From positions 5,611 to 69,610 of the forward strand of contig CAMNCW010000026.1 of NCBI GenBank assembly GCA_946534715.1: a stretch of DNA of 64,000 nt, written 5' to 3'. Below are positions 2,515 through 51,471 of the stretch, piece by piece; the first letter of the stretch is position 1; each line of letters begins with the position of its first letter. This DNA comes from an uncultured Bacteroidales bacterium. GTDB lineage: Bacteria > Bacteroidota > Bacteroidia > Bacteroidales > Paludibacteraceae. The translations under genes and the position numbers were made by a program. The notes under the pieces were generated by a model that was not told the DNA's origin, did no database searches, and saw only the letters and a program-made list of their open reading frames with translations.

Positions 2515-3954
2515 ATGAAAAATCGAATTATAATCGTCGTTCTTTGCACCATGACAGCCTTGTCCGTCATGGCGCAAGAGAACGTCAAGACGGAAAAGAA
2601 GGAGACGGTCAAGTCACATCTTGTTCAGCATTTCAAGTTGTACGGTTTTGTCCGCAACTATTTTGCTTATGACAGCCGTGAATCTCTCTCCGGAACGGGT
2701 GATTTGTATAACTACCAGCCGCGGGATGTGAACTGGAATCAGACGCCCGAACAAGCAGCTGCTTCCGGTGTAGAGCGCCAGGACTTGAATGCTCAATCCA
2801 CATTCCGTTTCCTATCTCTGACCACCCGTCTGGGGCTGAATATCGTGGGCTATAAATGGCGCAACACGGAGTTCGGCGGAAAGATAGAAGCGGATTTTTA
2901 TGCCGGTTTGAGCACAAAAGGTTCGGGTGTTCACTCCGTATCGGGAACGGCTCAGTTTCGTCTGCGTCAGGCCTATATGACGATGGCGTGGGATAGTCTG
3001 CGTATGGGCGATAAGGCCTATGCGCGTGTAGATTTATTATTAGGTCAAGCATGGCATCCGATGGCAGCTGATCTGAGCGATGTGATTGCTCTCAACTCCG
3101 GTGCTCCTTTCGGTCCTTTCAGCCGTACGCCTCAGGTGAAGATGGATGCGCGTCTGGGCAACTATTTCACCCTTACCGGTGCGCTGATCTGGCAGATGCA
3201 GTATTGTTCCATCGGTCCGGACGGTCAGTCGGCGGAGTATATCGGTTACAGCAAAACACCGGAGGCATACCTGGGAGTGAATGTGCATGCCAACGGATTC
3301 TTGGCAAGAGCAGGAGCGGATGTGCTCAGTATATGCCCTCGTCATACGGGAACGGTGTTGGCGGCAGACGGCAAGACACAGGTTGCCGTTCGTGTGAACG
3401 ACCGTCTCACTACCGCATCGCCATTTATCTATCTGCAATACAAGAAAGGCGAGTTCTCCATCAAAGCCAAATCGGTCTTTATGGAAGCCGGTGAACACAT
3501 GAACATGAACGGCGGTTACGGCGTGAAGAAAGTGAATGCCGACGGGTCATGGGAATATACGCCGACGCGTACTTCTTCCTCATGGCTCAGTATTGTATAT
3601 GGCGGCAAAGTAGGCGCGCAGGAGGATAAACATCCCCAGAAACTGCAAGGCATCCTCTTCGGCGGTTACGTCCGTAATTTCGGTACTAAAGATCCATTGG
3701 CAACCAAACAAGACGGTTCTTTGGTGGGATTCTATTATCCGCGTGCAAGCAATATGAACCAAATGTACCGCTTATCGCCGACGCTGCTTTATACGGTGGG
3801 TAAATTCCAATTAGGTTGCGAGTACGAGATCACTTCGGTGCAATATGGCGACATCGCCCAAGGGGGCATCAACCCCGCTAATGGTCTGTGCGACAAAGGA
3901 CTTCACTGGGTGACAAACCATCGTGTACAACTGATGACAAAATATAATTTCTAA
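2515..3954 (+). CDS. Outer-membrane beta-barrel (porin-like) protein
   Basis: Signal peptide MKNRIIIVVLCTMTALSVMAQE, alternating amphipathic pattern and a C-terminal ...KYNF beta-signal. ATG at 2515; the track uses TTG at 2506. Confidence 0.5.
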   Translation: MKNRIIIVVLCTMTALSVMAQENVKTEKKETVKSHLVQHFKLYGFVRNYFAYDSRESLSGTGDLYNYQPRDVNWNQTPEQAAASGVERQDLNAQSTFRFLSLTTRLGLNIVGYKWRNTEFGGKIEADFYAGLSTKGSGVHSVSGTAQFRLRQAYMTMAWDSLRMGDKAYARVDLLLGQAWHPMAADLSDVIALNSGAPFGPFSRTPQVKMDARLGNYFTLTGALIWQMQYCSIGPDGQSAEYIGYSKTPEAYLGVNVHANGFLARAGADVLSICPRHTGTVLAADGKTQVAVRVNDRLTTASPFIYLQYKKGEFSIKAKSVFMEAGEHMNMNGGYGVKKVNADGSWEYTPTRTSSSWLSIVYGGKVGAQEDKHPQKLQGILFGGYVRNFGTKDPLATKQDGSLVGFYYPRASNMNQMYRLSPTLLYTVGKFQLGCEYEITSVQYGDIAQGGINPANGLCDKGLHWVTNHRVQLMTKYNF

Positions 3955-5596: not shown

Positions 5597-6238
5597 TTAC
5601 CGCACTTTGCGGATGATGGTAAGTCCGTCACGAAGAGGAAGGATGACCTGCTCAAAGCGGTCGTCCTTTTTCAATTGGTCATTGAAAGCCCGCAGACCGA
5701 GGGTCTGTTTGTCGCGGTCATATGCGGGGTCGATGATGTGTCCGTCCCAGAGGGTGTTGTCCGCCAAAATGAACCCGCCAACGGGCACTAAAGGATAAAC
5801 CGCCTCTAAATATGCGCAGTATTCGCGCTTGTCCGCATCGATAAAGACGAGGTCAAATTGATAATTGAGAATTGACAATTGAGAATTGATAATTGAGCAC
5901 GCATCGCCGATGATGAGTTCAATTTTCTCTCCCAACGGCGAACGGGAGAGGTTTCTGCGTATGGTGTCTTCCAACTCGTCGTTGTGCTCGATGGTCACTA
6001 AACGTCCGCCTTTTGCCAAACCTTCTGCAAGACACAAAGCACTATAACCGGTGAACGTACCAAGCTCCAAAATCCGTTTCGGCTTGATCATATGGCTGAA
6101 CATACTCAGCGCGCGACCCTGTACGTGTCCGCTCAACATGTGCGGGTTTAAAATATGTACGTACGTATCGCGCGTAATCGCCTCTAAAGCTCCGTTTTCG
6201 GGAGTGGAATGGTAAGAAATATACTCTTCAAGTGTCAT
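5597..6238 (-). CDS. Class I SAM-dependent O-methyltransferase (family 3, caffeoyl-CoA OMT-like)
   Basis: LELGTFTGYSALCLAEG SAM motif and FDLVFIDADKREY. Start taken at the internal Met (MTLEEYI), just downstream of a minus-strand -7 box. Confidence 0.8.
   Translation of the reverse strand: MTLEEYISYHSTPENGALEAITRDTYVHILNPHMLSGHVQGRALSMFSHMIKPKRILELGTFTGYSALCLAEGLAKGGRLVTIEHNDELEDTIRRNLSRSPLGEKIELIIGDACSIINSQLSILNYQFDLVFIDADKREYCAYLEAVYPLVPVGGFILADNTLWDGHIIDPAYDRDKQTLGLRAFNDQLKKDDRFEQVILPLRDGLTIIRKVR
5856..5897. repeat. Heptamer array AATTGAN x6 (42 nt) inside the O-methyltransferase CDS
   Basis: aattgat aattgag aattgac aattgag aattgat aattgag. Translated on the minus strand as SIINSQLSILNYQF. 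Confidence 0.9.
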
Positions 6239-9921: not shown

Positions 9922-11249
9922 AAAACCTCCGATACATATTGTCCTTTGTCCTTTGTACATTGTCCCTTTGTACTTTTGCACAGGATTATGCCCGTATCTC
10001 CGAGCGCTCTATCATGGGAACAGCGCGCTATGTGGGTATGGGAGGTGCGATGTCTGCTATCGGTGGCGACCCGTCTTCTATTCATGACAACCCTGCCGGA
10101 TTAGGACTTTACCGGCGTACGGAGATGATGATCACGTTTGACGGCATGTTCGATAAGACTACTCAACCGGGTTATCAGGATGTCGGCGAAAGGCGACTCT
10201 TCATGGCGCCACAAGCATCGCTGATCTTCTCCATGCCTTCTTATAGCGCGGACGATGAGGGAGTTCAGTTCAATAATCTCTCTTTGTCTTACCGCCGCCT
10301 CAATACATTCAATCGTCTGTGGCTCGGTTCGGGCGAGAAGGACTTGTCCCTCGGAGCGTTGTTAACCACAGCGGATGTCAAATGGGATATACCCTTCTGC
10401 TCCGAGAAGATAAATGCAACCAATCTTCTCGACTTAGCGGAGAGCGGTCACACCAGTGAGTTCGCGATTGATTGGGCAATTAACATCTCTAATAGATGGT
10501 TTGTGGGTTTCGGAGTGCATATTCAGTCTTATTTCTTGGCTTCGGACGGAGATTTTCAGGAGACTTTTTCTTCCAAGAATGCGTTCGGAAGGAATATGTA
10601 TAACCTCAACCAAACGAAACTGACCCTTTCGGGAACAGGATGTAACCTCACAGCAGGGCTCATCTATCGTCCGGCTTCTTGGATCCGTATGGGATTTGGT
10701 ATTCAGACGCCTACATTGGGATCGCTCAATACTTATACCTCCGGCACACTCGTTGCCTTGACGGATTCGGTTCGGTATTCCTATGCACCTAATGCGTATA
10801 GCCGTGATTCGAAGTTCCATATGCCTCTGCATTTGTCTTCTTCGGTAGCCTTTCAAGTGGGCGCGTATGGCATGCTTGCATTCCAATATGATTATTTCAA
10901 GCAACTGCAAAACGATGCCGTTCATTCCTTGCGAACCGGTCTTGAGGTCATTCCTGTCATGGGATTGTATGTGAATGCCGGATATGCGTTTGAGAGCACT
11001 TTCAAGAAGAATACGAACCCTGTTCCGATGGATCCGACTTTTGAGCGTCAAGATACCTATTTCGTGACCCCGCAGTGGTCGCAATATGTCTCTGCCGCAA
11101 TCGGCTATCGAGGAACAATTATGATGGTTCAAGCAGCATACCAATATCGCTGGCAAAGAACTAATCTATATGCCCACGAGAATGCCTCGCCATATGATAT
11201 GAATGCCACTACCCACCGCATCATTTTTACCATAGGCTGGCATAGATAA
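9918..11249 (+). CDS. Outer-membrane beta-barrel protein (FadL/PorV-like N-terminal motif)
   Basis: Signal peptide plus RYVGMGGAMSAIGGDPSSIHDNPAGLG, a motif seen in FadL/PorV-type barrels. 443 aa. Confidence 0.5.
   Translation: MKNLRYILSFVLCTLSLCTFAQDYARISERSIMGTARYVGMGGAMSAIGGDPSSIHDNPAGLGLYRRTEMMITFDGMFDKTTQPGYQDVGERRLFMAPQASLIFSMPSYSADDEGVQFNNLSLSYRRLNTFNRLWLGSGEKDLSLGALLTTADVKWDIPFCSEKINATNLLDLAESGHTSEFAIDWAINISNRWFVGFGVHIQSYFLASDGDFQETFSSKNAFGRNMYNLNQTKLTLSGTGCNLTAGLIYRPASWIRMGFGIQTPTLGSLNTYTSGTLVALTDSVRYSYAPNAYSRDSKFHMPLHLSSSVAFQVGAYGMLAFQYDYFKQLQNDAVHSLRTGLEVIPVMGLYVNAGYAFESTFKKNTNPVPMDPTFERQDTYFVTPQWSQYVSAAIGYRGTIMMVQAAYQYRWQRTNLYAHENASPYDMNATTHRIIFTIGWHR
9939..9980. repeat. Heptamer array TTGTNCN x6 (42 nt) encoding the signal-peptide h-region
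   Basis: ttgtcct ttgtcct ttgtaca ttgtccc tttgtac ttttgca gives SFVLCTLSLCTFA. This is the reverse complement of the GTACAAR arrays that encode the C-terminal tails at 32321, 34104 and 37401. Confidence 0.8.
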
Positions 11250-19749: not shown

Positions 19750-21213
19750 ATGAAAATTCAGTTTCTCGGAGCTACCGGTGAAGTGACGGGTAGCAAACAT
19801 CTTATCACTACCGATTCGGGGCACACTATTTTGTTGGACTGTGGCATGTACCAGGGTAAAGGCATGGAAACCGATGCTGCGAACAGGGATTTGGGCTTTG
19901 ATCCGAAGACCTTGGACTGTGTGGTGCTTTCGCACGCGCACATTGATCATTCCGGGCTGATTCCTTATATTGTCAAGTTGGGTTTCAAGGGTGATATCTA
20001 TTGTACGCCGGCTACGAGGGATCTTTGCTCGCTCATGTTGACCGACACGGCTTTTATTCAGGAGCAGGATGTCAGAACCTACAACAAGAAGATCGACCGC
20101 CAGCATCCGCATAAGGAGAAAGGCAGGAAATACAAGGTCGAACCGCTCTATGACCAGAAGGATGTGCAAAAGGCGATGAAGCATTTTGTAACCTATAGTT
20201 ACGACCGTCGCTTCCGGCTTTTTGATGATGTGTTGCTGACTTTCACCAACTCCGGTCACATGCTCGGCGGTGCAATCTGCTCGCTGGAAGTGTATGAAAA
20301 ATCTACTCCCTCCCTTGTGGGGAGGGCTGGGGAGGGGTTCCGCTGGAAGCGCCTCACTTACACCGGCGATGTCGGACGTTTGCATTGCCATATCCTGCCT
20401 CCGCCCCAACTCTTCCCGCAATGCGATTATCTGATCTGCGAATCGACCTATGGCGATAAACTGCACGAAGAGCAGTTAGTGACCGAAGAGCAGCTCCTCG
20501 GCGTGGTGGAAGATACATGCGTCTATCGAAAAGGCCAGTTGCTCATTCCTTCTTTCTCCGTCGGCAGAACCCAGGAAATCGTTTATGTCCTCAACCAACT
20601 CTATAATGACGGACGGCTCCCGCATATTCCGGTCTATGTCGATTCGCCGATGAGTACCAACGCAACACAGATCTTCAGAATGTACCCGGAAGAGTTGTCA
20701 GACGAAGTGAGAGACACCATGCAGTTTGACCCCGATCCCTTTGGATTTAACACGCTGCGTTACATCACAGACATAAACGAATCGAAGATGCTGAACCATA
20801 AAGACGAACCCTGTATCATCATTTCCGCGAGCGGCATGTTGGAGGCGGGGAGAATAAAACACCATGTGGCGAACCATATTTCCGACCCGAGGTGTACGAT
20901 TTTGATTGTCGGTTACTGCGAACCTTCCACACTCGGCGCACGGATTCAGCAACCGGGATTGCAATGGATCTCTATTTTCGGACTTGACAGACGTATCAAA
21001 GCGCAGATCACCAAGATCGAAGGTTTCTCGGGGCATGGTGATTATAAAGAGATGATTGATTATTTCACTCGCTCTTTAGATGTATCACAAGTGCAGCGCA
21101 CGTTTGTGGTGCATGGAGAGCCGCAAGCGGCAGAGGCGTATAAGGGACATTTGACCGACGCGGGCTTCAAAAATATATGCATTCCCGCCAAAGGAGAGCT
21201 CGTAGAACTATAA
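19750..21213 (+). CDS. MBL-fold metallo-hydrolase of the beta-CASP RNA-metabolising type
   Basis: HAHIDHSG motif, beta-CASP and RNA-specificity C-terminal region; 487 aa. Confidence 0.85.
   Translation: MKIQFLGATGEVTGSKHLITTDSGHTILLDCGMYQGKGMETDAANRDLGFDPKTLDCVVLSHAHIDHSGLIPYIVKLGFKGDIYCTPATRDLCSLMLTDTAFIQEQDVRTYNKKIDRQHPHKEKGRKYKVEPLYDQKDVQKAMKHFVTYSYDRRFRLFDDVLLTFTNSGHMLGGAICSLEVYEKSTPSLVGRAGEGFRWKRLTYTGDVGRLHCHILPPPQLFPQCDYLICESTYGDKLHEEQLVTEEQLLGVVEDTCVYRKGQLLIPSFSVGRTQEIVYVLNQLYNDGRLPHIPVYVDSPMSTNATQIFRMYPEELSDEVRDTMQFDPDPFGFNTLRYITDINESKMLNHKDEPCIIISASGMLEAGRIKHHVANHISDPRCTILIVGYCEPSTLGARIQQPGLQWISIFGLDRRIKAQITKIEGFSGHGDYKEMIDYFTRSLDVSQVQRTFVVHGEPQAAEAYKGHLTDAGFKNICIPAKGELVEL
20306..20339 (+). 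repeat. G/C-rich hairpin mini-element, in frame (translated PSLVGRAGEGF)
   Basis: ctccctccc-ttgt-ggggaggg ctggggaggggtt within the MBL CDS. Confidence 0.85.
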
Positions 21214-21352: not shown

Positions 21353-21427
21353 CGGGTAGTAGTTCAGCCCGGTTAGAATGCCTGCTTTGGGAGCAGGAGG
21401 TCGTGAGTTCGAATCTCGCCTACCCGA
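21353..21427 (+). tRNA. tRNA-Pro (anticodon TGG)
   Basis: Manual cloverleaf: acceptor CGGGTAG/CTACCCG, D stem GTTC/GAAT, anticodon stem CCTGC/GCAGG with loop TTTGGGA, T arm GTGAG-TTCGAAT-CTCGC, discriminator A. No encoded CCA. Confidence 0.9.
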
Positions 21428-23639: not shown

Positions 23640-24746
23640 ATGAGACACAAATTTATCATCTTATTTTCATTCTTTTTCTGCGTTGGCTGCGGGGCAACGG
23701 AAGTGCCTGAACCGCAACCCAAACCCGTTGCGTCTTATTCGTTATGCAACGCCAATGCTACTGCCGAAACGCAGCAGTTATGGTCGTTGTTGTGCAGCCA
23801 ATACGGTAAGAACGCCCTTTCCGGCGTGGTGGCTAATATAGATTGGAACGCGCGCGAGGCGGAGAACGTCTATCAATGGACGGGTCATTACCCGGCGATC
23901 AATGTGTTTGACTTTATCAATATCCATGCGTCCAAAGACGTGAATAAAAACGGCTGGCTCGATTACAGCGACATGACGCCGGTGGAGGAATGGCACCAAG
24001 CTGGCGGCATAGTAGGTTGCATGTGGCATTGGCAGGTGAAGGCGAACAACGGGACGAACTATACCTGTTCGCCGGGCGTCGAACCCGGGCAGACGTCTTT
24101 CGATCCCGCAAAGGTCAATGACCCCTCTTCGGCGGAATACAAACAAATGATCCACGATATTGACCAGGTAGCAGGGTATTTGAAGAAAATGCAGAAACGC
24201 GGAATAGCGGTTCTATGGCGTCCGTTGCACGAAGCATCGGGCAATACGTCGGAGTTTGCCGGCGGCGGTGCTTGGTTCTGGTGGGGTGCCAAAGGCGCAG
24301 AAGCATACAAAGCGCTATGGCGGTTCATGTACGACCGAATGGTTAATTATCACAAACTCAACAACCTCATCTGGATATGGAACTCACAGATGAACGACTA
24401 TGATTGGTACCCCGGCGACGACGTAGTGGATATCGTGGGACGCGATAACTACTATGCGCTCCAATACCCCTTGGCGAAAGAGTTCAAAGCCTTACAGGAG
24501 CAGTTCCCCAACAAACTGATCACGCTGGCGGAATGCGGCAACGGCGACGAAGTGGAGATGTCGCTATGGAGCGATATATGGTCGGAAGGCAGCCGCTGGA
24601 GCTGGTTCATGACGTGGTACGATTATAACTACAACGCCGGCACTTCCGACGAACATCAGTTTGCCGGCGAAGCATGGTGGAAAGATGCGTTCAACAGCGG
24701 CGTGGTGCTCGATCGGGATGAGGTGAAAGGACTGATGAGGAGGTGA
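23640..24746 (+). CDS. GH26 endo-beta-1,4-mannanase, lipoprotein
   Basis: Lipobox FFFCVGC. GH26 signature VLWRPLHEASG...GGAWFWWG. Confidence 0.85.
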   Translation: MRHKFIILFSFFFCVGCGATEVPEPQPKPVASYSLCNANATAETQQLWSLLCSQYGKNALSGVVANIDWNAREAENVYQWTGHYPAINVFDFINIHASKDVNKNGWLDYSDMTPVEEWHQAGGIVGCMWHWQVKANNGTNYTCSPGVEPGQTSFDPAKVNDPSSAEYKQMIHDIDQVAGYLKKMQKRGIAVLWRPLHEASGNTSEFAGGGAWFWWGAKGAEAYKALWRFMYDRMVNYHKLNNLIWIWNSQMNDYDWYPGDDVVDIVGRDNYYALQYPLAKEFKALQEQFPNKLITLAECGNGDEVEMSLWSDIWSEGSRWSWFMTWYDYNYNAGTSDEHQFAGEAWWKDAFNSGVVLDRDEVKGLMRR

Positions 24747-24747
24747 T

Positions 24748-24866
24748 AACCCCTCCTGACCTCCCCCACAAGGGGAGGAGAAAGGATAGTCATGAAGAGA
24801 AACAAATATATACTATTTTTACTTGCATTCTTAGCCCTCCCTTGTGGGGAGGGTTGTGGTGGGGTT
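24748..24866. mobile_element. 119-bp inverted-repeat cassette (two G/C hairpin elements in opposite orientation) straddling a start codon
   Basis: Left arm aacccctcctgacctcccccacaaggggaggag (24748-24780), right arm ccctcccttgtggggagggttgtggtggggtt (24835-24866). ATG 24792 lies between them. The right arm is translated as LPCGEGCGGV. Confidence 0.7.
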
Positions 24867-28900: not shown

Positions 28901-29130
28901 TCCTCAAAATCAAATATATCACCCTCAGTTACGATTGGAATAACCCTGCCAAATGGCTGCAGAAGATCAATTTCAATTTCACCGTCAATAACGTCTATAC
29001 TTTCACGCGTTATTCATGGTTTGACCCCGATGTGAATGCCGCCGGCACGAATCCTTCCTGCCCGGGCGTGGATAGTTATTCCTATCCCGCTGCACGGACG
29101 TATAACTTAGGTATCAACTTTGTATTCTAA
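25966..29130 (+). CDS. susC: SusC/RagA-family TonB-dependent outer-membrane transporter
   Basis: 1054 aa. CarboxypepD_reg-like TVTGKVIDGANNESAIGATVIV, plug domain and C-terminal ...YNLGINFVF. Confidence 0.95.
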   Translation: MKNKFFVHRTLFHRTFIVLCTLSLCSFLSAQTTVTGKVIDGANNESAIGATVIVAGTQVGTVTDFDGHFSIEVPDGKFILQFSMVGYKTQVVNIRGKSHVEVTMQEDTQVMEEVVVVGYGVMKKRDLSGSVSQIKSEDIMSGGTLNTAQSLEGKIAGVDVKSSDGAPGSGVSITVRGANSFTTSSQPLYIVDGVPFGTDPNGVPSSGANDGQNTSQNPLSMINPNDIEKIEVLKDASATAIYGSRGANGVVIITTRKGQEGRPRVELNVKGGMQQIANRVQMLDAYHYALYQNEAAANSRTYEGGTQRDPYRGEWDYPYVGSGYVYNQGKYNPSPEDFLNPGLRTDKYGNVDEVAGTDWQREIYQLGYSQEYNASVSGGTEKGYYAFSGSYADQRGIIKNTGYKRYGLSINTAWHITKWLEIGTSQHFTNATTDFQRTNSENTGIIRSALIFPPTYGPHQQTEQLDELNWLAANPLNYVNGAKDELKQISWFSSSFVEFTIQPWLKLRQNLGLGYNDGHRATYYDRHTQEGKSPFNGKAGRASNIWKSLTAETLLTFDHKFNANHSINAVLGVTFERGIGESESMTATNFPNDLTKDANMALALDKGVLRSSQTQQSLESYLARMNYTLMGRYIFTASARVDGSSSFAPKHKWAPFFSGAFAWRMIDENWMQDQQVLSNWKWRVSFGETGNQAIGAYRTLTVLDAANYPYAGTLESGAAMIDWRGPTNPDLRWETTDQADAGLDIGFANNRVNITLDYYWKKTRDLLQNVTIPSSTGFSQMMINSGFVINQGFELTLNAVAIDMADWKWQLDANFSLNRNRIGGLKGDQYATALWSKADQVFLQRNGCPIGTLYGYREEGIDPATGEIVYSDLNGDGSVTEADRTIIGNTNPDFTYSLTSRLSWKGLSLNFMLQGSHGNDIFNYNLTDITMSNIGNITQQAYDHRWTAANPDGALWPKPTAGYNRTWLVSNRYVEDGSFLKIKYITLSYDWNNPAKWLQKINFNFTVNNVYTFTRYSWFDPDVNAAGTNPSCPGVDSYSYPAARTYNLGINFVF
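25981..26047. repeat. Imperfect heptamer array (TTGTAC/TTGTCC type, ~9 units) encoding the SusC signal peptide
   Basis: tttgtac atcgtac attgttc ... ttgtact ttgtact ttgtccc tttgttc gives FVHRTLFHRTFIVLCTLSLCSF. Shares LCTLSLC with ORF 9918. Confidence 0.75.
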
Positions 29131-29131
29131 T

Positions 29132-29247
29132 AACCCCACCTGACCTCCCCACAAGGGAGGGAATAAAAACACTACAGTTATGAAAGTAAAAAAATATATC
29201 ACCCGACTATTAATCATCCTCCCCTTGTGGGGAGGCTTGGTGGGGTT
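29132..29247. mobile_element. 116-bp inverted-repeat cassette (second copy) straddling the susD start codon
   Basis: Left arm aaccccacctgacctccccacaagggaggg (29132-29161), right arm cctccccttgtggggaggcttggtggggtt (29218-29247). ATG 29180 lies between them. The right arm is translated as LPLWGGLVGL. Confidence 0.7.
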
Positions 29248-30979
29248 ATTTCCCTCCTGTTCCTGGATCCAGGAGAACCCGGACAGTCTTATCACGCCCG
29301 AGAAACTCGGAGACAGCAAGGAGGCTTGTGACCAACTTGTCACCGGCGTCTATTCCAAGTGGATATACGACATGTTCTGCTGGGGCTATTTCCCGCGGAT
29401 GTTAGAGTTTGACGCGGACTATATCTCCGGTCCCGATTGGTTATTCGGTACGTTTGGCGCCGGCAATTTCCAAGGCGAGCCGGACTTGGTGGATGCGTTA
29501 TGGAAAGGATGTTACGGGCTCATCGGACGCGCCAACACTGCCGAGCAGTATATCTCCGCGATGAAGAATATCACCGACAGGGAGAAGAACAATGCCCTTG
29601 GCGAACTGCGTTTCCAGAAGGCTTTTGCGTACTTCCTCCTTGTCCGCGCCTACGGAGAGGTACCTATCCAAGTACCAATCACCAATAACCAATCCCCTGT
29701 CTCCCCCTCTGAGAGGGGGGCGGGGGGGGGCTCTCCCCGCAAACCCGTCACGGAGGTCTATTCCCATATCATCTCCCTGCTCGAAGGCTGCACCACGATG
29801 CTCTATAAAAACACGGATGATGCCTATCGTCCCGGGCATGTGTCTGCGGGCTCTGCGGCTGGTTTGTTAGCCAAAGTCTATGCTACCGAAGCGTCTTACG
29901 CTATGCCTGCCGGCACCTCCCTCACGATCCGTTCCGGAGCGGCTTATACCACCGATGGATCCGGCAACAAACGCTATGCACCTTTGCAGGCATTCCATTT
30001 GACCAAACAGACCGTCCCCGGCTACGAGTCCCTCGATCCGATGCAGCTCTACCAGCAGGCTGCCGATTGGTGCTCGGAACTGTTAGCCGGTACGTACGGT
30101 GACTATCAGCTCTCGGAATACGACCAACTTTGGCTCAAAGCCAACGCCAATGCCTCGGAGTTCCTGTTCTCCGTCAATACCGTCTCCGGCGATGCTACCT
30201 ATAAGACCTCGGTGCATACCCAGTATGAGGGCTACATGACCGCTACGGGTTCGGACTTCATTCAGTCCGGTGGCTGGACCGGCTGCACGCGTCATTGGTA
30301 TGACCTCTTCGACCATGACGACTACCGCATCACCAAAGGTGTACGTCACCGCTGGCGCAACTACACGCAGCGTGAGTCTAACTCCGGCTTCTATTATCCC
30401 TATGACGATGAATATACGATCATGGCGACCGGCAGAAACCTCGCCGGTGATTGGATCAAAGACCCTTCCGGCATCTATGCCGACGGCGTCAATTATTACT
30501 ATTCCGCCGATGCGCAATGTCTCGCTTTTACTACCAAATACGAGGACGTGACCGATAATGCCATTGATAATGCTGATGCCAACTGGCCTTTCCTCCGTTT
30601 GGCGGATGTAATACTGATCTACGCCGAGGCGCTCAATGAACTGGATCATCCCTCCGATGCGCTTGCGCAACTGAATAAGGTACGTCTGCGCGCCAATGCA
30701 GACCGTGCTTCCATGGGCGGCAAGAGAGCGTTGGCTACCAAAGAGGCACGGCGGTCTGCCATCATCGAAGAACGCGCCAAAGAGTTAGCATGCGAAGCAG
30801 ACCGCCGATGGGATCTGATCCGCTGGGGCGTTTATCTCGACGCGATGAATGCCTTGGGAGGAACGGACGACTCCGGCGTCAATAAATCCCGCACCGAACG
30901 CAATCTCCTTTTCCCGCTGCCCGCACAGGAGATCAACACCAACCCCGAGATCAACTCCAATAACCCCGGGTGGAATTAA
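29180..30979 (+). CDS. susD: SusD/RagB-family nutrient-binding outer-membrane lipoprotein
   Basis: Lipobox ..LFPSCSWIQENPDS, and TPR-like SusD core (FLLVRAYGEVP, LRLADVILIYAEALNE). Confidence 0.9.
   Translation: MKVKKYITRLLIILPLWGGLVGLFPSCSWIQENPDSLITPEKLGDSKEACDQLVTGVYSKWIYDMFCWGYFPRMLEFDADYISGPDWLFGTFGAGNFQGEPDLVDALWKGCYGLIGRANTAEQYISAMKNITDREKNNALGELRFQKAFAYFLLVRAYGEVPIQVPITNNQSPVSPSERGAGGGSPRKPVTEVYSHIISLLEGCTTMLYKNTDDAYRPGHVSAGSAAGLLAKVYATEASYAMPAGTSLTIRSGAAYTTDGSGNKRYAPLQAFHLTKQTVPGYESLDPMQLYQQAADWCSELLAGTYGDYQLSEYDQLWLKANANASEFLFSVNTVSGDATYKTSVHTQYEGYMTATGSDFIQSGGWTGCTRHWYDLFDHDDYRITKGVRHRWRNYTQRESNSGFYYPYDDEYTIMATGRNLAGDWIKDPSGIYADGVNYYYSADAQCLAFTTKYEDVTDNAIDNADANWPFLRLADVILIYAEALNELDHPSDALAQLNKVRLRANADRASMGGKRALATKEARRSAIIEERAKELACEADRRWDLIRWGVYLDAMNALGGTDDSGVNKSRTERNLLFPLPAQEINTNPEINSNNPGWN
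29675..29738 (+). repeat. CCAATNN heptamers x3 fused to a G/C hairpin element containing a G6-C-G9 tract, in frame in susD
   Basis: ccaatca ccaataa ccaatcc then cctgtctccccctctgagaggggggcgggggggggctctcccc. Translated ITNNQSPVSPSERGAGGGSPR. Confidence 0.85.
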
Positions 30980-32371: not shown

Positions 32372-32397
32372 ACTGTTAAATTGTTAAATTTATAATA
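32321..32397 (+). repeat. NNCAARG heptamers x6 (C-terminal tail) followed by TGTTAAAT octamers
   Basis: atcaagt acaaagg aacaaaa tacaatg tacaagg agcaaag (IKYKGTKYNVQGAK), then gttaaac tgttaaat tgttaaat. The same layout repeats at 34104-34180. Confidence 0.85.
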
Positions 32398-32399
32398 TT

Positions 32400-34154
32400 A
32401 TGAAAAAAATCTTTCTATTTTTAAGTGTAGTGCTGGTATCCCTGGCAATGCAGGCAACTGTGCAAAAAGCAGATTGGAACTTTAGCGGAATGACCGAGTG
32501 GGACTCAGGAACAGCGTCTTTTAATACAGAAACAGGAGTCGTTACGGCAAATCAATTTCGTGGCGTAGGTAACTGGGGATGGTTGGAAAAAGGAGACTAC
32601 GACACACTCGTGGTTGAAGTAGCAGATCATGATTATCCTGTATTAGTGAAGGTAAAAACCATCAATGATGGTGAAGCCGATCAAACAGAGAATTATGTAG
32701 ATTTTCAGAAGGAAATATCTGCCAAGCAAAATTGCCTTGTTCTTGATTTGACTTCATCAAAAGATATTATAAAGTATATTGAGTTGGATAACTGGTCAAA
32801 GCATGATGGTGCAACTTTTACGATTAAGAGTATCTATGCGTTAAAGACTTCCGGAATTAAAATCACACGTCCTCTTTGGAACGGGGAAAATGCCTTTGGT
32901 AATTGGGAACATAGCATTTCTGTTGATCCGTTTGCTCGCGTCTATGAATATGATGAGATGGTGATAAAATATACGAAAGGAAGTGATCCGCAGTGCCAGA
33001 TTAAAATCAGAGGAACCAACGCGTTTTTGGATTTTGTAGGCGACTATGTGGATGTAAGCGGAGAGACGCAAGCTTCCTTCCTTTTAAGTGCGGCGGATGT
33101 TGCTGCAATTAAAAGTAACGGTTTCTACTTAAATGGTAAAAACATGACCATCACAGATGTTCTAATAGTAAGCCACAGAACTTTGGCAAGTGAGGAAAAG
33201 GTAGTTGGAGGATGGAATAATCACTGTGAGATTGATGCAGCAGGCATGTTGGCTGATTTGCAGATAGGCAATAATATCTGCGTGTGCGTTACGAACATTG
33301 CTTCGGGGGAATATCAGCGTGTCAGCCTTTACAGCGGTTGGAGTAATTCGGATCTTTTGGTTGGTTGTGAGCATTTCTTTGGAGCAGAGACGGCATCAGG
33401 AGATAGTCCACTTATCGTACGTTTCCCCGTTACTGGCAGTATGAAACAACAGTTAGGATCTCACAATTTGCTTGTTCGTGGCTGTTATTTCACTATGACA
33501 GATGTGTACGTCGAAGAAGGTACTCCTGTAGCCGAAACAGGTGTAAATGGATATCTTACAGTCTCTACTGCCGGCATGGCTACATTTATGCTACCTTTTA
33601 ATGTGCCCTCTTTGCCGTCCGGTGTTCAGGCTTACGAACTGACCAATGACGGTTCTGAGGAGATTGTGGCTACTGAAGTTAAGACGCTCGAAGCAGACAA
33701 ACCCGTGCTTATCGTCGCTGCCAAAGGCGAATATAAGTTCATTAGCGAAGAAGGTGCATCGGCTGATATCTCTGGGAAAACAGGTACATATACCAACGGC
33801 GCGCTCGTTGGAACTTACCATACGATCAACCCATTAGCGCAGACCACTGATGACAAATACAACTATCTGCTCCAAAACGGAAAGGACGGCGTGGCTTTCT
33901 ATCAAGTGTTGGACGATGAATGCTCTTTGGGCGCTTACCGCGCATACCTCAGTTGTGGCTATAATGCCAGCACGTCAAAACCAGGCATGCCTCCGCGGAA
34001 GTCCATGCGTATTGTTTTCCGCACCGATGAAACAACAGGCCTTGTGGACGTACAAGGGTACAATGTACAAGGTACCAAGTTCATCAAGGACGGACAACTC
34101 TATATCAAGTACAAAGGGACAAAGTACAATGTACAAGGGCAGAAAGTGCGTTAA
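32400..34154 (+). CDS. Secreted multi-module surface protein with the same C-terminal tail
   Basis: 584 aa. Type I signal peptide. Modules end in ..TIKSIYAL / ..MTITDVLIV / ..FTMTDVYV. Tail FIKDGQLYIKYKGTKYNVQGQKVR. Confidence 0.7.
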   Translation: MKKIFLFLSVVLVSLAMQATVQKADWNFSGMTEWDSGTASFNTETGVVTANQFRGVGNWGWLEKGDYDTLVVEVADHDYPVLVKVKTINDGEADQTENYVDFQKEISAKQNCLVLDLTSSKDIIKYIELDNWSKHDGATFTIKSIYALKTSGIKITRPLWNGENAFGNWEHSISVDPFARVYEYDEMVIKYTKGSDPQCQIKIRGTNAFLDFVGDYVDVSGETQASFLLSAADVAAIKSNGFYLNGKNMTITDVLIVSHRTLASEEKVVGGWNNHCEIDAAGMLADLQIGNNICVCVTNIASGEYQRVSLYSGWSNSDLLVGCEHFFGAETASGDSPLIVRFPVTGSMKQQLGSHNLLVRGCYFTMTDVYVEEGTPVAETGVNGYLTVSTAGMATFMLPFNVPSLPSGVQAYELTNDGSEEIVATEVKTLEADKPVLIVAAKGEYKFISEEGASADISGKTGTYTNGALVGTYHTINPLAQTTDDKYNYLLQNGKDGVAFYQVLDDECSLGAYRAYLSCGYNASTSKPGMPPRKSMRIVFRTDETTGLVDVQGYNVQGTKFIKDGQLYIKYKGTKYNVQGQKVR

Positions 34155-34338: not shown

Positions 34339-36507
34339 AAACGACTATTCAAAATAAGCCTTGCCCTGTGTGTCTGCCTGATAGTGGGCACACCGATGCG
34401 GGCAGTAGAGATGCTGCCTACTTTCGGCGACATCGATCATATTCATCTGCCGGCGCTCATTGTGCAACATGCCGACGGTGATCTGAGTCTGCAACTGCGA
34501 GCACAGGACACCACCTATATCGACAACGCGCAATACAAAGAGACGGTGATTAAGACCAAAGATCTGGTGCAGCCGTTCTATGTGACGATCCATGTGCGGC
34601 AATGGAAATCGGTAGCGATTACCGAGACATGGTATGAGATCCTGCACACCGAGAAAAAGCCCGTGCGGTTAGAGCGTTATGACAGCGGGTATCTGCCTAT
34701 CGAGGGCGATGCGCCGTACCTGTTGCACCTACACGGTAACTGGGCGGCGGAGGGAGTGCCGACTATCGAACCTCTGACGCGCGGTGTGAAGACGATCCGT
34801 AACTCCGACGGCGCACGCAATGCGCATCTGGATGCACCCCAAGTGATGATCTCGCTGGACGGTGTGCCGCAAGAGAACTACGGCCGTGTGTTAGGCGCTG
34901 CGCTTTGCTGGAGCGGAAATTTCGAGATACGCGTGGCGGCTACCGACGAGAAAGGTTTTCATTTCTATGCCGGCATTGATCCCATGGCATCCGAGTACGT
35001 ATTAGCGCCCAAACAAGTGTTCACCACGCCGCATTTGGCTTATACGTATTCGAACGAGGGTATGGGCGGTGTGTCGCGTGCGTTCCATCAATGGGCGCGC
35101 ACCTGCGGCATGATCCATAACGGCAATGCTACGCGGGCTATTCTGCTTAACTCGTGGGAAGGCATCTATTTCGACATCACGGAGGAGAAGATCCTTGCCA
35201 TGATGAACGATATAGCGGCTTTCGGAGGTGAGCTCTTCGTGATGGACGACGGCTGGTTTGGCGGTAAGTACCAACGCAACAGCGATGATGCGGCGTTAGG
35301 CGATTGGACGGTCGATACACGCAAGCTGCCGAACGGACTCGAAGCTCTCACCAAAGCAGCCAAAGAGCGGCATATTCAGTTCGGTATATGGATCGAGCCC
35401 GAATCGACCAACACCCTTTCGGAACTCTATGAGAAGCATCCTAATTGGGTGCTCCAAGAGCGCGGAAGGGAACTCAAACTCGGTCGCGGAGGTACACAAG
35501 TAGTGCTCGATATGACGAACCCGGAGGTGCAGGATTTCGTGTTCTCCATCGTGGATAACCTCCTTACCAAGCACCCCGAAATAGCCTATATCAAATGGGA
35601 TGCGAACGCCTCGATTCAGAACTACGGTTCGCCGTACTTGCAGGCTCTTTCCGAGAACAAGTCTCTCCCCTTCAGGGGAGTAGGAGGGGTCCGCTCGAAC
35701 CTCTACGTGGACTACCATCTGGGGCTGGTCAAGACGCTCGAACGCATCCGCGCCAAGTACCCGGACGTGGTGATACAGAACTGCGCCTCGGGCGGCGGCC
35801 GTGCCAACTACGGGCTTATGCCGTATTTCGACGAGTTCTGGGTGTCCGATAACAACGATGCGCTGCAACGCGTCTATATCCAGTGGGGCACGTCGTATTT
35901 CTTCCCCTCAAACGCCATGGCGCAGCATATAGGCGGAAGTCCGTACCTCATGACCGGCCGCACAACGCCGATCAAGTTCCGCTGCGATGTAGCTATGTCG
36001 GGACGGCTCGGTATGGAACTGCAACCGGCGCACATGACTGACGAGGAACGCGCACAGTGTACCGTCGCTTTTCGCGACTACAAAGCCCTGCGCTCCCTCA
36101 TCCAACTCGGTAACCTCTACCGCTTGGTATCGCCGTACAATGACAAATATCAAATGTCAAATGTCAAATTGCCCGAAACGCAAAGCGTTGCGGCATTGAT
36201 GTACGTCAATGATACCAAAGACCAAGCCGTGCTCTTTGCGTACGGACTCTCCTCTTTCATGAAGCAGGCGAGCCGCCGTATCCGTCTTGCAGGGCTTGAT
36301 CCGAACCGTACCTATACGCTCCATGAGAAGAATATCTCCGTTAAGTACCACCATGACCGCGGTTCATGGGGCGAAGGCGAACCCTGCGAACTCGACGGCA
36401 AGTCTTTTACCGGCGAATACCTCATGTCCGTTGGTCTGGATATCCCTCTCTCTACCGAATACAACAGGGATTATCCCTCACGTATATTTTATTTAATTGG
36501 TAATTGA
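34336..36507 (+). CDS. GH36 alpha-galactosidase
   Basis: 723 aa. FVMDDGWFG, IKWDANA and NCASGGGRANYG motifs typical of GH36. Confidence 0.9.
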   Translation: MKRLFKISLALCVCLIVGTPMRAVEMLPTFGDIDHIHLPALIVQHADGDLSLQLRAQDTTYIDNAQYKETVIKTKDLVQPFYVTIHVRQWKSVAITETWYEILHTEKKPVRLERYDSGYLPIEGDAPYLLHLHGNWAAEGVPTIEPLTRGVKTIRNSDGARNAHLDAPQVMISLDGVPQENYGRVLGAALCWSGNFEIRVAATDEKGFHFYAGIDPMASEYVLAPKQVFTTPHLAYTYSNEGMGGVSRAFHQWARTCGMIHNGNATRAILLNSWEGIYFDITEEKILAMMNDIAAFGGELFVMDDGWFGGKYQRNSDDAALGDWTVDTRKLPNGLEALTKAAKERHIQFGIWIEPESTNTLSELYEKHPNWVLQERGRELKLGRGGTQVVLDMTNPEVQDFVFSIVDNLLTKHPEIAYIKWDANASIQNYGSPYLQALSENKSLPFRGVGGVRSNLYVDYHLGLVKTLERIRAKYPDVVIQNCASGGGRANYGLMPYFDEFWVSDNNDALQRVYIQWGTSYFFPSNAMAQHIGGSPYLMTGRTTPIKFRCDVAMSGRLGMELQPAHMTDEERAQCTVAFRDYKALRSLIQLGNLYRLVSPYNDKYQMSNVKLPETQSVAALMYVNDTKDQAVLFAYGLSSFMKQASRRIRLAGLDPNRTYTLHEKNISVKYHHDRGSWGEGEPCELDGKSFTGEYLMSVGLDIPLSTEYNRDYPSRIFYLIGN
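35663..35691 (+). repeat. G/C hairpin mini-element in frame in GH36 (translated SLPFRGVGGV)
   Basis: ctctcccc-ttca-ggggag taggaggggtc. Confidence 0.8.
36138..36171 (+). repeat. Heptamer array CAAATNT x5 in frame in GH36 (NDKYQMSNVK)
   Basis: caatga caaatat caaatgt caaatgt caaattg. The 20-mer aatgacaaatatcaaatgtc recurs (reverse strand) in aroQ at 62178-62219. Confidence 0.9.
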
Positions 36508-50784: not shown

Positions 50785-51411
50785 ATGAACAAAATTTCAA
50801 TTATTGTAGATTCAGTTTTGTGTGCCGCAGTAGTGGCCTTGTTTGTGATGTTTTTTGTAGCCATGCCGAAGAGCAAGAAGCCTGTTAATCAGGATGTTGA
50901 GGCTTCAGGCGAGTTACTGCCTATTGCTGTAGTGAATACAGATTCGATTTTGAAACATTACACTTTAGCCGTTGAGGCATCGGATAAATTGATGGCTCAA
51001 TATGAGGAGTCCACGGTTAAACTGGATACCAAAGCAAAAGCCCTTCAGAAAGAGTACGAGACTTTCCAACGCGACGTTGTGGATTTTCAGCGCAAAGTGG
51101 AGGCCAATGCTTTCCTGAGCCGCGAACGTGCCGAGTCTGAGCAATCTCGTTTGCAGAAAAAAGAGCAACAGTTGATGAGCAAACAGCAGGATTTGGAAAA
51201 TCTGCGTCAGAAATTGAGCTCGGATTTTATGAACGAGCAGGCTGCTTTGACCCAACAGTTGCAGGATTCAGTACAACAATATCTGCGTGAATATAACGCT
51301 GACGGTCATCTGCATCTGATTCTAAATGAAGCTGTTCTGATGAACAAAGTGGCAGGCTATGACATTACCGATGAGGTGATTGAAGGTCTGAATGCACGGT
51401 ATAAGAAGTAA
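50785..51411 (+). CDS. OmpH/Skp-family periplasmic chaperone
   Basis: 208 aa. N-terminal anchor, then long Q/E/K-rich coiled coil typical of OmpH. Confidence 0.75.
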   Translation: MNKISIIVDSVLCAAVVALFVMFFVAMPKSKKPVNQDVEASGELLPIAVVNTDSILKHYTLAVEASDKLMAQYEESTVKLDTKAKALQKEYETFQRDVVDFQRKVEANAFLSRERAESEQSRLQKKEQQLMSKQQDLENLRQKLSSDFMNEQAALTQQLQDSVQQYLREYNADGHLHLILNEAVLMNKVAGYDITDEVIEGLNARYKK

Positions 51412-51413
51412 AT

Positions 51414-51447
51414 AACCCCCTCCCGACCTCCCCCACAAGGGGAGGAG
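51414..51447 (-). repeat. Solo G/C hairpin element (reverse orientation) directly after a stop codon
   Basis: TAA-at-aaccccctcccgacctcccccacaaggggaggag. Same left-arm sequence as 24748 and 29132. Confidence 0.85.
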
Positions 51448-51471
51448 AACGGGAAAGATAGAAATAGAAAG

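Follow-up and report, generated by a model that had tools for sequence, protein, structure and literature searches.

The susC–susD junction

The 64,000-nucleotide stretch of DNA analysed here (the window, in whose numbering all positions without a locus designation are given) comes from an uncultured Bacteroidales bacterium (assembly GCA_946534715.1, contig CAMNCW010000026.1), a ruminant-gut Paludibacteraceae-like organism, and contains a mannan-type polysaccharide utilization locus (PUL) with GH26, SusC/SusD, GH36 and GH130 genes. The feature studied is a pair of short, GC-rich inverted repeats around the start of susD, in the region 29131–29250, the downstream member of which lies in the part of susD that codes for a predicted signal peptide. 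A previous sequence-only reading had described positions 29132–29247 as a cassette straddling the susD start, and its coordinates, the ATG at 29180, the translation LPLWGGLVGL and the adjoining FPSC were all confirmed.

The stop codon of susC (TAA) occupies 29128–29130, and the gap between susC and susD is 49 nt long. TAACCCCACCTGACCTCCCCACAAGGGAGGG occupies 29131–29161, and the ATG of susD is found 18 nt later at 29180; it is followed by MKVKKYITRLLII and then by CCTCCCCTTGTGGGGAGGCTTGGTGGGGTTA (29218–29248), which is translated LPLWGGLVGL and has FPSC directly 3' of it, with the Cys codon at 29258–29260. By inverted-repeat search, two arms of 34 nt each (29129–29162 and 29217–29250) were recognized, which are 85% complementary and have 54 nt between them. 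The features of the junction are as follows.

29131..29162, minus strand: left arm (copy D), C-rich on the mRNA strand; nhmmer E = 8.9e-9, covariance model score 51.2 bits
29163..29216, plus strand: spacer, 54 nt, A-rich, containing the ATG at 29180 and the n-region MKVKKYITRLLI
29217..29250, plus strand: right arm (copy E); nhmmer E = 1.8e-9, also matched by the covariance model
29132..29254, plus strand: polymorphic block of 123 nt (the two arms, the spacer and 6 extra nt), delimited by blastn breakpoints
29180..29260, plus strand: predicted SusD lipoprotein signal peptide MKVKKYITRLLIILPLWGGLVGLFPSC, with presumed processing at Cys27

Copy D begins 1 nt past the susC TAA, contributes a second in-frame TAA and folds by itself into a 6-bp GC hairpin, and the spacer is the loop of a predicted stem between the two arms. 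Copy E, read in frame as (I)LPLWGGLVGL(F), constitutes the core of the predicted h-region. The gene that starts at 29180 has the SusD Pfam domains, and its N-terminus, which is predicted to be a lipoprotein signal peptide, consists of the n-region MKVKKYITR, the h-region LLIILPLWGGLVGLF and the lipobox PSC; the lipobox Cys, after which comes (S/N)W(I)(Q/E)E, is constant in most of the listed SusD orthologues. The proposal that the repeat encodes the h-region held up: the right arm supplies 10 of the roughly 15 h-region residues before the lipobox Cys. Because the h-region would be too short without it, the right arm is apparently engaged functionally as coding sequence of the predicted signal peptide. 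Several public SusD gene calls start with MGLFPSC or MGLLPSC, that is, at an internal GTG (29240) in the right arm; this start, which drops the signal peptide, is probably an annotation error due to the repeat.

The repeat unit and its copies in the window

The second cassette that had been noticed at 24748–24866, with the same architecture, is real; its arms are 24747–24780 and 24833–24866, it surrounds the ATG at 24792, and its inverted arrangement was recovered by the repeat search. A search of the window with an nhmmer profile found exactly six copies of one unit (E = 4e-10 to 9e-9), of which four are the paired arms and two, added here to the account of the sequence-only reading, are solo copies. 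The cassette is therefore assembled from a smaller unit. When an 18-mer core was searched with up to three mismatches, six matches were found against 0.02 expected, and none of 100 shuffled windows reached six. The four copies outside the susC–susD junction, all of them matched by the covariance model too, are listed below.

20304..20342, plus strand: solo copy A, in-frame in a beta-CASP metallo-beta-lactamase gene (19750–21213), encoding TPSLVGRAGEGF
24747..24780, minus strand: copy B, left arm of the sister pair, directly after the GH26 stop TGA (24744–24746)
24833..24866, plus strand: copy C, right arm of the sister pair, in the signal peptide of a 390-aa protein (ATG at 24792)
51411..51449, minus strand: solo copy F, intergenic, between the stop TAA of an OmpH-like gene (51409–51411, from the list of open reading frames (ORFs)) and the ATG of a Wzi-like gene (51472)

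Copy C is read in a frame different from that of copy E and gives LPCGEGCGGV, and copy F has no partner in the signal peptide of the downstream Wzi-like gene. In locus L001 (L numbers designate the loci collected for comparison), the stop codon of the GH26 gene is the TAA of the mini-repeat itself. Two weak matches on the plus strand, at 29699–29735 in susD and at 35663–35692 in a downstream gene (covariance model 20.5 bits, E = 0.0025; nhmmer E about 7–10), could be old decayed copies or chance similarities.

The consensus of the unit is TYCYCCCTCCC-TTGT-GGGGAGGG-NNNN-GGWGGGGTT(ATT), 32–39 nt long, in which a C-arm and a G-arm enclose a TTGT loop and are followed by a 4-nt linker, a second G-run and a terminal TT(ATT), and every copy folds alone into a GC hairpin of 6–8 bp. 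A covariance model trained on 14 copies recognized 177 copies across all the collected loci, with the hairpin pairing in 90% of cells, and in five of the seven pairs both sides have changed (23 cells; shuffles give 8.3 ± 2.2). Since the homopolymer-like arms also pair well in slid registers, the covariation support for the hairpin is modest. None of the three frames of the G-strand contains a stop codon, and stops on the opposite strand derive only from the terminal TAA, plus a TGA from the TCA linker in some copies.

No Rfam 15 family was assigned to the units at either gathering or permissive thresholds (the only matches elsewhere were tRNA, ybhL and DUF805b), neither an intrinsic terminator nor a sigma-70 promoter was predicted at them, and a literature search with the repeat sequence strings returned nothing relevant. 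The GTAG and CGTC tags are lacking in the consensus and in all six window copies. The G-quadruplex was considered as a defining trait and rejected, four tracts of three or more G being present in only 80 of 150 copies and, in the window, in copy A alone.

Distribution among genomes and placement relative to genes

When one genome per species was scanned with a sequence pattern, at least 118 stretches were obtained; the counts from it are samples and, here and below, refer to the matches listed, and genes were called as ORFs plus profile matches. The metagenome-assembled genomes (MAGs) of rumen Bacteroidales/Paludibacteraceae contributed 36 unit copies in 26 blocks of 8 kb. About 26 of the 36 are inside long ORFs, away from the start and in both orientations, about six come after stop codons, and the one gene-start pair is the orthologue of the susD pair. 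Intergenic units begin 0–4 nt past the upstream stop, with the TAACCCC end toward it. Intragenic units are read in frames without stop codons and give peptides such as PSLVGRAGEG, LPCGEGxGGV, LPLWGGxVG, TPPxPSPQGRE and KPHPTSPQGEE; full-length NCBIfam models span the insertion in glnS, hutU, recF, glgB, ispD, an RluA-family gene, TrmN and an ABC-F gene, and in murI the NCBIfam match is split into two stretches at the unit.

A near-identical module, CCCCTCCCCCTTGTGGGGAGGGGTTGGGGAGGGGTT, was also recognized in Rhizobiaceae, other Alphaproteobacteria, Chloroflexi, Planctomycetes, Acidobacteria and others, at about 90% identity between Bacteroidales and the other phyla. Loci of Rhizobiaceae (L008, L017, L019, L041, L043, L048, L062, L064, L068, L083 and others) contain inverted pairs that are intergenic, whose members lie about 90–100 nt apart, and which have variable interiors and are extended by GCGGCA...TAAGCCCC; these may correspond to the published RIME (Rhizobium-specific intergenic mosaic element) or Sm-repeat elements. 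It was considered whether the Rhizobiaceae doublets enclose gene starts, and this was rejected: the long ORFs involved prolong, in the upstream direction, genes whose own starts are downstream. In viral contigs, unit copies of the Rhizobium type only were found, in contigs of high GC content.

Paired units

Six of the 36 units in the Bacteroidales sample belong to inverted pairs of the minus-then-plus type, about tenfold more than the roughly 0.6 expected; the three pairs have gaps of 12, 13 and 47 nt between nhmmer envelopes, and two further units have decayed partners. Among 115 units from the other phyla, 68 lie no more than 160 nt from a neighbour; of the 34 pairs so formed, 32 are inverted, with usual spacers of about 95 nt in Rhizobiaceae and 40–57 nt in other Alphaproteobacteria. 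The arms of Bacteroidales pairs are 3–13 nt or about 54–56 nt apart, and most copies are solo. The sequence-only reading had staked its interpretation on further copies occurring as inverted pairs or at gene starts; minus-then-plus pairing is clearly enriched, although a general preference for gene starts is absent from the family (one pair among the 36 copies).

In a metagenome scan for minus-then-plus pairs with spacers of 35–65 nt, 23 loci were found, 12 of them from Ga0082212 and two of the Bacteroidales type. Ga0082212 holds a clear family of MITEs (miniature transposable elements with inverted repeats), in which the module forms the terminal repeats around a conserved 60-nt interior that occurs in both orientations. 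At ten of these loci (L127, L130, L131, L132, L136, L137, L139, L144, L145 and L148) the terminal repeats read ACCTCTCCCCCGACCCCTCCCCACAAGGGGAGGGG, and some copies reach outward to GTAACTACTC.

The claim that two such cassettes in one PUL are not a coincidence is supported; there is a third, independent pair, and the susD pair is retained in two distant lineages. Both L115 and L143 (the latter metagenomic) are distant orthologues of the same susC/susD junction with the pair kept. At L134, a GHL10-like gene begins with MKRIYTILTCLLFLPLWGGQVGF in the spacer of an independent start-straddling pair, and the stop of the upstream gene lies 4 nt ahead of AACCCC. The three independent pairs (susD, the 390-aa gene and L134) thus have one geometry: stop, 0–4 nt, arm, 12–17 nt, ATG, 37–41 nt, arm.

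Allele replacement at the junction and at other sites

In strain L175, which is 93–94% identical to the window on either side of the junction and 99% identical in SusD, the block is replaced as a whole. Homology detected by blastn ends at 29131 and resumes at 29255, so that the breakpoints are the outer ends of the arms, and in place of the block L175 has an unrelated 80-nt segment (2966–3045) encoding MRSKFSIFNFQFSILIVFAMSISSC from a run of TTTTCAA heptamers. The 123-nt block is therefore one allele. The heptamer allele recurs in L123 (84% nucleotide identity), which lacks any unit in this PUL, and in three distant SusD orthologues (67–75% protein identity); the unit allele recurs in the distant orthologues L115 and L143. 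The listed SusD orthologues have many unrelated signal peptides, most of which end at the same lipobox Cys.

The cassette of L115 (6959–7081) is identical to window 29131–29250 at 115 of 120 positions (96%), compared with 79–80% in the flanking 150-nt segments, and its spacer is 93% identical. In L143 the arms are 85–88%, the spacer 69% and the flanks 79–80% identical to the window. The simplest account would be that a junction module is exchanged by recombination in the conserved 3' end of susC and the 5' end of the sequence for mature SusD. Alternative junction alleles hold short tandem repeats, namely TTTTCAA heptamers (FSIFNFQFSI in the SusD signal peptide), four copies of AAGTGACA and AGAACTCC-like runs (L175 2966–3045; L123 about 5990–6075 and about 1616–1665; L174 about 1433–1500), and these appear to be a separate source of variability at the junctions.

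Unit-less alleles of the sister junction exist in L121, L123 and L174. In L174 the 390-aa protein starts with M-HTYKYILILLF, which resembles the MKRNKYILFLLAF of the unit-bearing alleles, and the N-terminus of this protein is therefore host sequence; copy C looks as if it had been inserted into a pre-existing h-region. In L172, where spacer and gene are intact, both arms of the sister pair have decayed and are no longer complementary to each other; a compensatory C>T/G>A change has preserved the left arm's own hairpin. The stop region of the unit-less GH26 gene already reads TAACCC.

In glnS, most relatives have VITNY-EGEG-ET and one clade has VITNY-PSSLPCGEGQGGVC-ET. The corresponding DNA changes from AATTAT-GAGGGCGAAGGC-GAAACC to AATTAT-CCTTCTTCCCTCCCTTGTGGGGAGGGCCAGGGTGGGGTTTGT-GAAACC, which means that 12 nt were replaced by 42 nt without a target duplication; the pre-existing GAGGGCGAAGG matches GAGGGCCAGGG of the unit at 9 of 11 positions. 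Other strains have, at the same glnS site, a short-spacer doublet of a related subfamily or a unit with a nested second element. A surface loop of the beta-CASP protein (window 20302–20341) is filled in four ways within proteins of one 90%-identity cluster: by a fresh unit in the window, by a decayed unit in L125 (about 10550–10610), by a decayed unit with a nested element in L126, and by a CAAAC-rich 52-nt insert in L001 (1115–1166). Two MAGs differ at one site in murI, where the first has a solo unit and the second a pair.

The nested element is about 50 nt long (TGAAGRGCTTYGCYCGATCG..CGTCCGTAGAACA), has a CGGACG/CGTCCG hairpin followed by GTAG, and has landed twice independently in the G-arm of a unit (L126, about 3490–3540, in the decayed unit of the beta-CASP gene; L170, in the glnS gene). 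It looks like a GTAG-tagged repetitive extragenic palindromic (REP) sequence that targets the hairpin of the unit. A candidate transposase gene between two inverted units 570 nt apart in L033 was rejected, the intervening gene being yqeY-like.

Two further observations concern other parts of the window. A tRNA gene lies at 21353–21427 (Rfam, 65.2 bits), between the beta-CASP gene and a gene for an HAD hydrolase. Positions 32391–33563, within the gene at 32400–34154, cannot be aligned to contigs L001 and L002, which are elsewhere 96–98% identical; their counterpart is about 1.5 kb long, with a product of 692 aa compared with 584 aa in the window, and represents a variable region of a PUL surface protein.

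Origin of the susD doublet

We consider it probable, though by no means certain, that the susD feature is an inverted doublet of a selfish mini-repeat resembling REP sequences, their hairpin-forming doublets (REPINs) and Rickettsia palindromic elements (RPEs), and that one of its copies has been co-opted as signal-peptide coding sequence. The unit is a dispersed, GC-rich palindromic mini-repeat; according to this explanation it is probably selfish and has expanded in a ruminant-gut Paludibacteraceae/Bacteroidales lineage. Because its G-strand frames are free of stops and its other strand has few, it would survive in two settings, either directly after a stop codon, toward which its TAACCCC end points, or in-frame within genes. 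At the susC–susD junction, the upstream copy fills the gap, and the downstream copy would have become part of the susD reading frame, of whose predicted signal peptide it may provide most of the hydrophobic core; the non-random, REPIN-like pair delimits the 123-nt block, which is exchanged or replaced as one allele across strains and lineages.

Several observations weigh against this explanation. A lineage-specific selfish repeat does not explain why the module is nearly identical in different phyla. An upstream partner is present for all three independent signal-peptide copies, which under independent insertion, with about 3% occupancy of intergenic gaps, has a p of roughly 3e-5. We infer mobility of the unit, and an enzyme behind it, solely from presence/absence polymorphism: all of the "empty" sites differ by replacement and never by a clean insertion, and no mobilizing gene was found in the collected loci, which contain neither a long unit-bounded element nor a transposase between units. 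Finally, the contrast between cassette (96%) and flanks (80%) in L115 may reflect selection rather than exchange.

The alternative that fares best, although we think it unlikely, is that the mobile unit is a portable start cassette of about 120 nt, comprising the left arm, an A-rich leader with the ATG, the Lys-rich n-region and a right arm that encodes LPLWGGxVG; it would be a MITE that puts its own translation start and signal-peptide N-terminus at the head of genes. The recurrence of one geometry in three independent genes and the exchange of the block as a whole, with breakpoints at the arm ends, are in its favour, as are the dissimilarity of the susD spacer to the alternative allele in spite of 93%-identical flanks, an AATATATAC motif that the B–C pair and L134 have in common (in different reading frames), and the Ga0082212 MITE, which combines the same module with a conserved spacer. 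However, against control starts of genes for signal-peptide proteins the spacers of the three cassettes are not significantly similar to one another (top 3%, 10% and 39%), there is little evidence for an element-borne spacer, and in L174 the 390-aa gene has the KYILxLL N-terminus even without units. Moreover, most copies are solo or form pairs with spacers of 3–13 nt and no ATG, and the sole gene-start pair in the unbiased sample is the susD orthologue. Protein-level searches for the N-terminus, though of low power, were also empty: a 46-aa artificial query for the cassette N-terminus gave no candidates, and a 30-aa phmmer query against 1.84 billion representatives gave only an unrelated repetitive protein.

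It is still less likely, in our estimation, that the doublet is maintained as an RNA structure, in which a duplex of about 30 bp between the arms in the susC–susD transcript would expose the start codon in its loop as a translation insulator, or would be an RNase III site uncoupling susC from susD in the manner of the Correia elements of Neisseria. The predicted stem (-55.4 kcal/mol, z = -6.65, equalled by none of 200 shuffles) does place the start codon in the 54-nt A-rich loop, and the sister pair gives -56.8 kcal/mol (z = -3.8); the arms are at least as conserved as the spacer in L143 and nearly perfect in L115, and the terminal repeats of Correia elements are known to be cut by RNase III (PMC10969869). 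On the other hand, L172 has lost the arm–arm complementarity with its gene and spacer intact, the linkers of the arms (TCAG and CTTG) do not covary, close strains and many orthologues have no such structure, and the same units are found solo in coding regions, where such a role is inapplicable. This suggests that the long stem with the start codon in its loop is a side effect and not a selected function.

We regard as very improbable a MITE of the Tc1/mariner (IS630) type with duplication of a TA target, which the sequence-only reading had put forward from the TA dinucleotides at the outer ends. The flanks are as described in the susD pair (TA-ACCCC...GGGGT-TA), and its size (about 118 nt) and terminal inverted repeats (31–34 nt) are MITE-like, but the sister pair ends in GGGGTTC, L134 ends in GGGGTTT and L143 starts with GA-AACCCC. 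The idea is unsupported because in just 22 of 44 copies is GGGGTT followed by A, for the most part within a TTATT that looks element-borne, because the inner ends of solo units have no TA, and because the filled glnS site is a replacement without duplication; the commonest form, furthermore, is the solo 32–39-nt unit. A phase-variable inverton with the arms as recombinase sites is extremely improbable, for although Bacteroidales are rich in invertons and flipping 29163–29216 would give an in-frame ATG at 29162 and an open, hydrophobic 19-codon leader (MINSRVIYFFTFITVVFLFLPLWGG...), only one orientation is present in five independent assemblies (the window, L001, L002, L115 and L143), the 605-aa length of the flipped form is absent from the 15 listed of 27 SusD cluster members, a recombination synapse would have to form over a very short segment (54 nt), and the same arms occur solo in coding DNA.

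Comparison with known repeats

The unit that we favour as a selfish mini-repeat resembles the REP sequences, bacterial interspersed mosaic elements (BIMEs) and REPINs (Bertels & Rainey 2011, PMC3116915) in being a short, GC-rich imperfect palindrome (20–40 nt in those families; six copies with 6–8 GC pairs in the 64 kb here), in its frequent position just past stop codons, in forming inverted, spaced doublets that can fold into a long hairpin, and in the absence of a target duplication. It is different from them in that it lacks the GTAG or CGTC tag of the two large REP superfamilies (PMC3733652), in that the Bacteroidales copies are mostly intragenic whereas REPs are extragenic, and in that the module is near-identical across phyla whereas pairs of REP and REP-associated tyrosine transposase (RAYT) are lineage-specific. 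As to the REPIN type of doublet, pairs are enriched and those of Ga0082212 are MITE-like, but the Bacteroidales copies are mostly solo and their spacers are not conserved. The same holds for MITEs in general: terminal repeats are present, and an interior is conserved in Ga0082212 but not among the start-straddling pairs of Bacteroidales.

RPEs, as summarized in a review (Ogata et al. 2000, via PMC10969869), are palindromes inserted in-frame into unrelated housekeeping genes, to which they add a tolerated peptide. The unit shares this in-frame insertion with the frame kept, and the same sites and loops have been hit repeatedly. In that account, however, RPEs are about 100–150 bp long and belong to Rickettsia only; the unit here has 32–42 nt (10–14 aa) and an unrelated sequence, its host is a free-living gut anaerobe, and one of its copies is part of a predicted signal peptide. 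Correia elements, MITEs of about 100–155 bp with terminal inverted repeats, are likewise often located at gene starts and operon junctions and are co-transcribed, their repeats pairing as an RNase III substrate, and the TA ends are matched in the susD copy only. Their conserved interior, integration host factor (IHF) site, promoter elements and consistently duplicated TA are not seen here, and the arms of the present doublet are autonomous and are found alone. The 2024 review of prokaryotic MITEs (PMC10969869) mentions neither Bacteroidetes nor signal peptides.

The small dispersed repeats of Nostoc are reportedly mobile units of 21–27 nt found in intergenic and in conserved coding DNA, without target duplication and in association with heptamer tandem repeats. 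The heptamer and octamer runs that fill alternative alleles here would be a similar feature; the cyanobacterial repeats are said to be shorter and of other sequences.

Implications

If the explanation given above is true, an RPE-like phenomenon exists in ruminant-gut Bacteroidales, for whose phylum we found none reported: a repeat of about 35 nt would add 10–14 residues to essential enzymes and would supply the cores of signal peptides. For protein evolution, this would mean that the same loops are hit recurrently, and for annotation, that gene callers which place the start of susD at the internal GTG drop its signal peptide.

The near-identity across phyla raises the question of what recognizes or generates the module. 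A bolder answer, which we offer only tentatively and think rather doubtful, is that the module marks an undescribed cross-phylum superfamily of miniature elements, which would spread without target duplication through a hairpin-recognizing enzyme or microhomology-seeded conversion and would have colonized the coding DNA of Bacteroidales, where doublets would act as exchangeable "start modules" that provide outer-membrane lipoproteins such as SusD with their 5' leader, ATG and signal peptide. For the biology of PULs, the susC–susD junction would be a hypervariable module that is common to several lineages.

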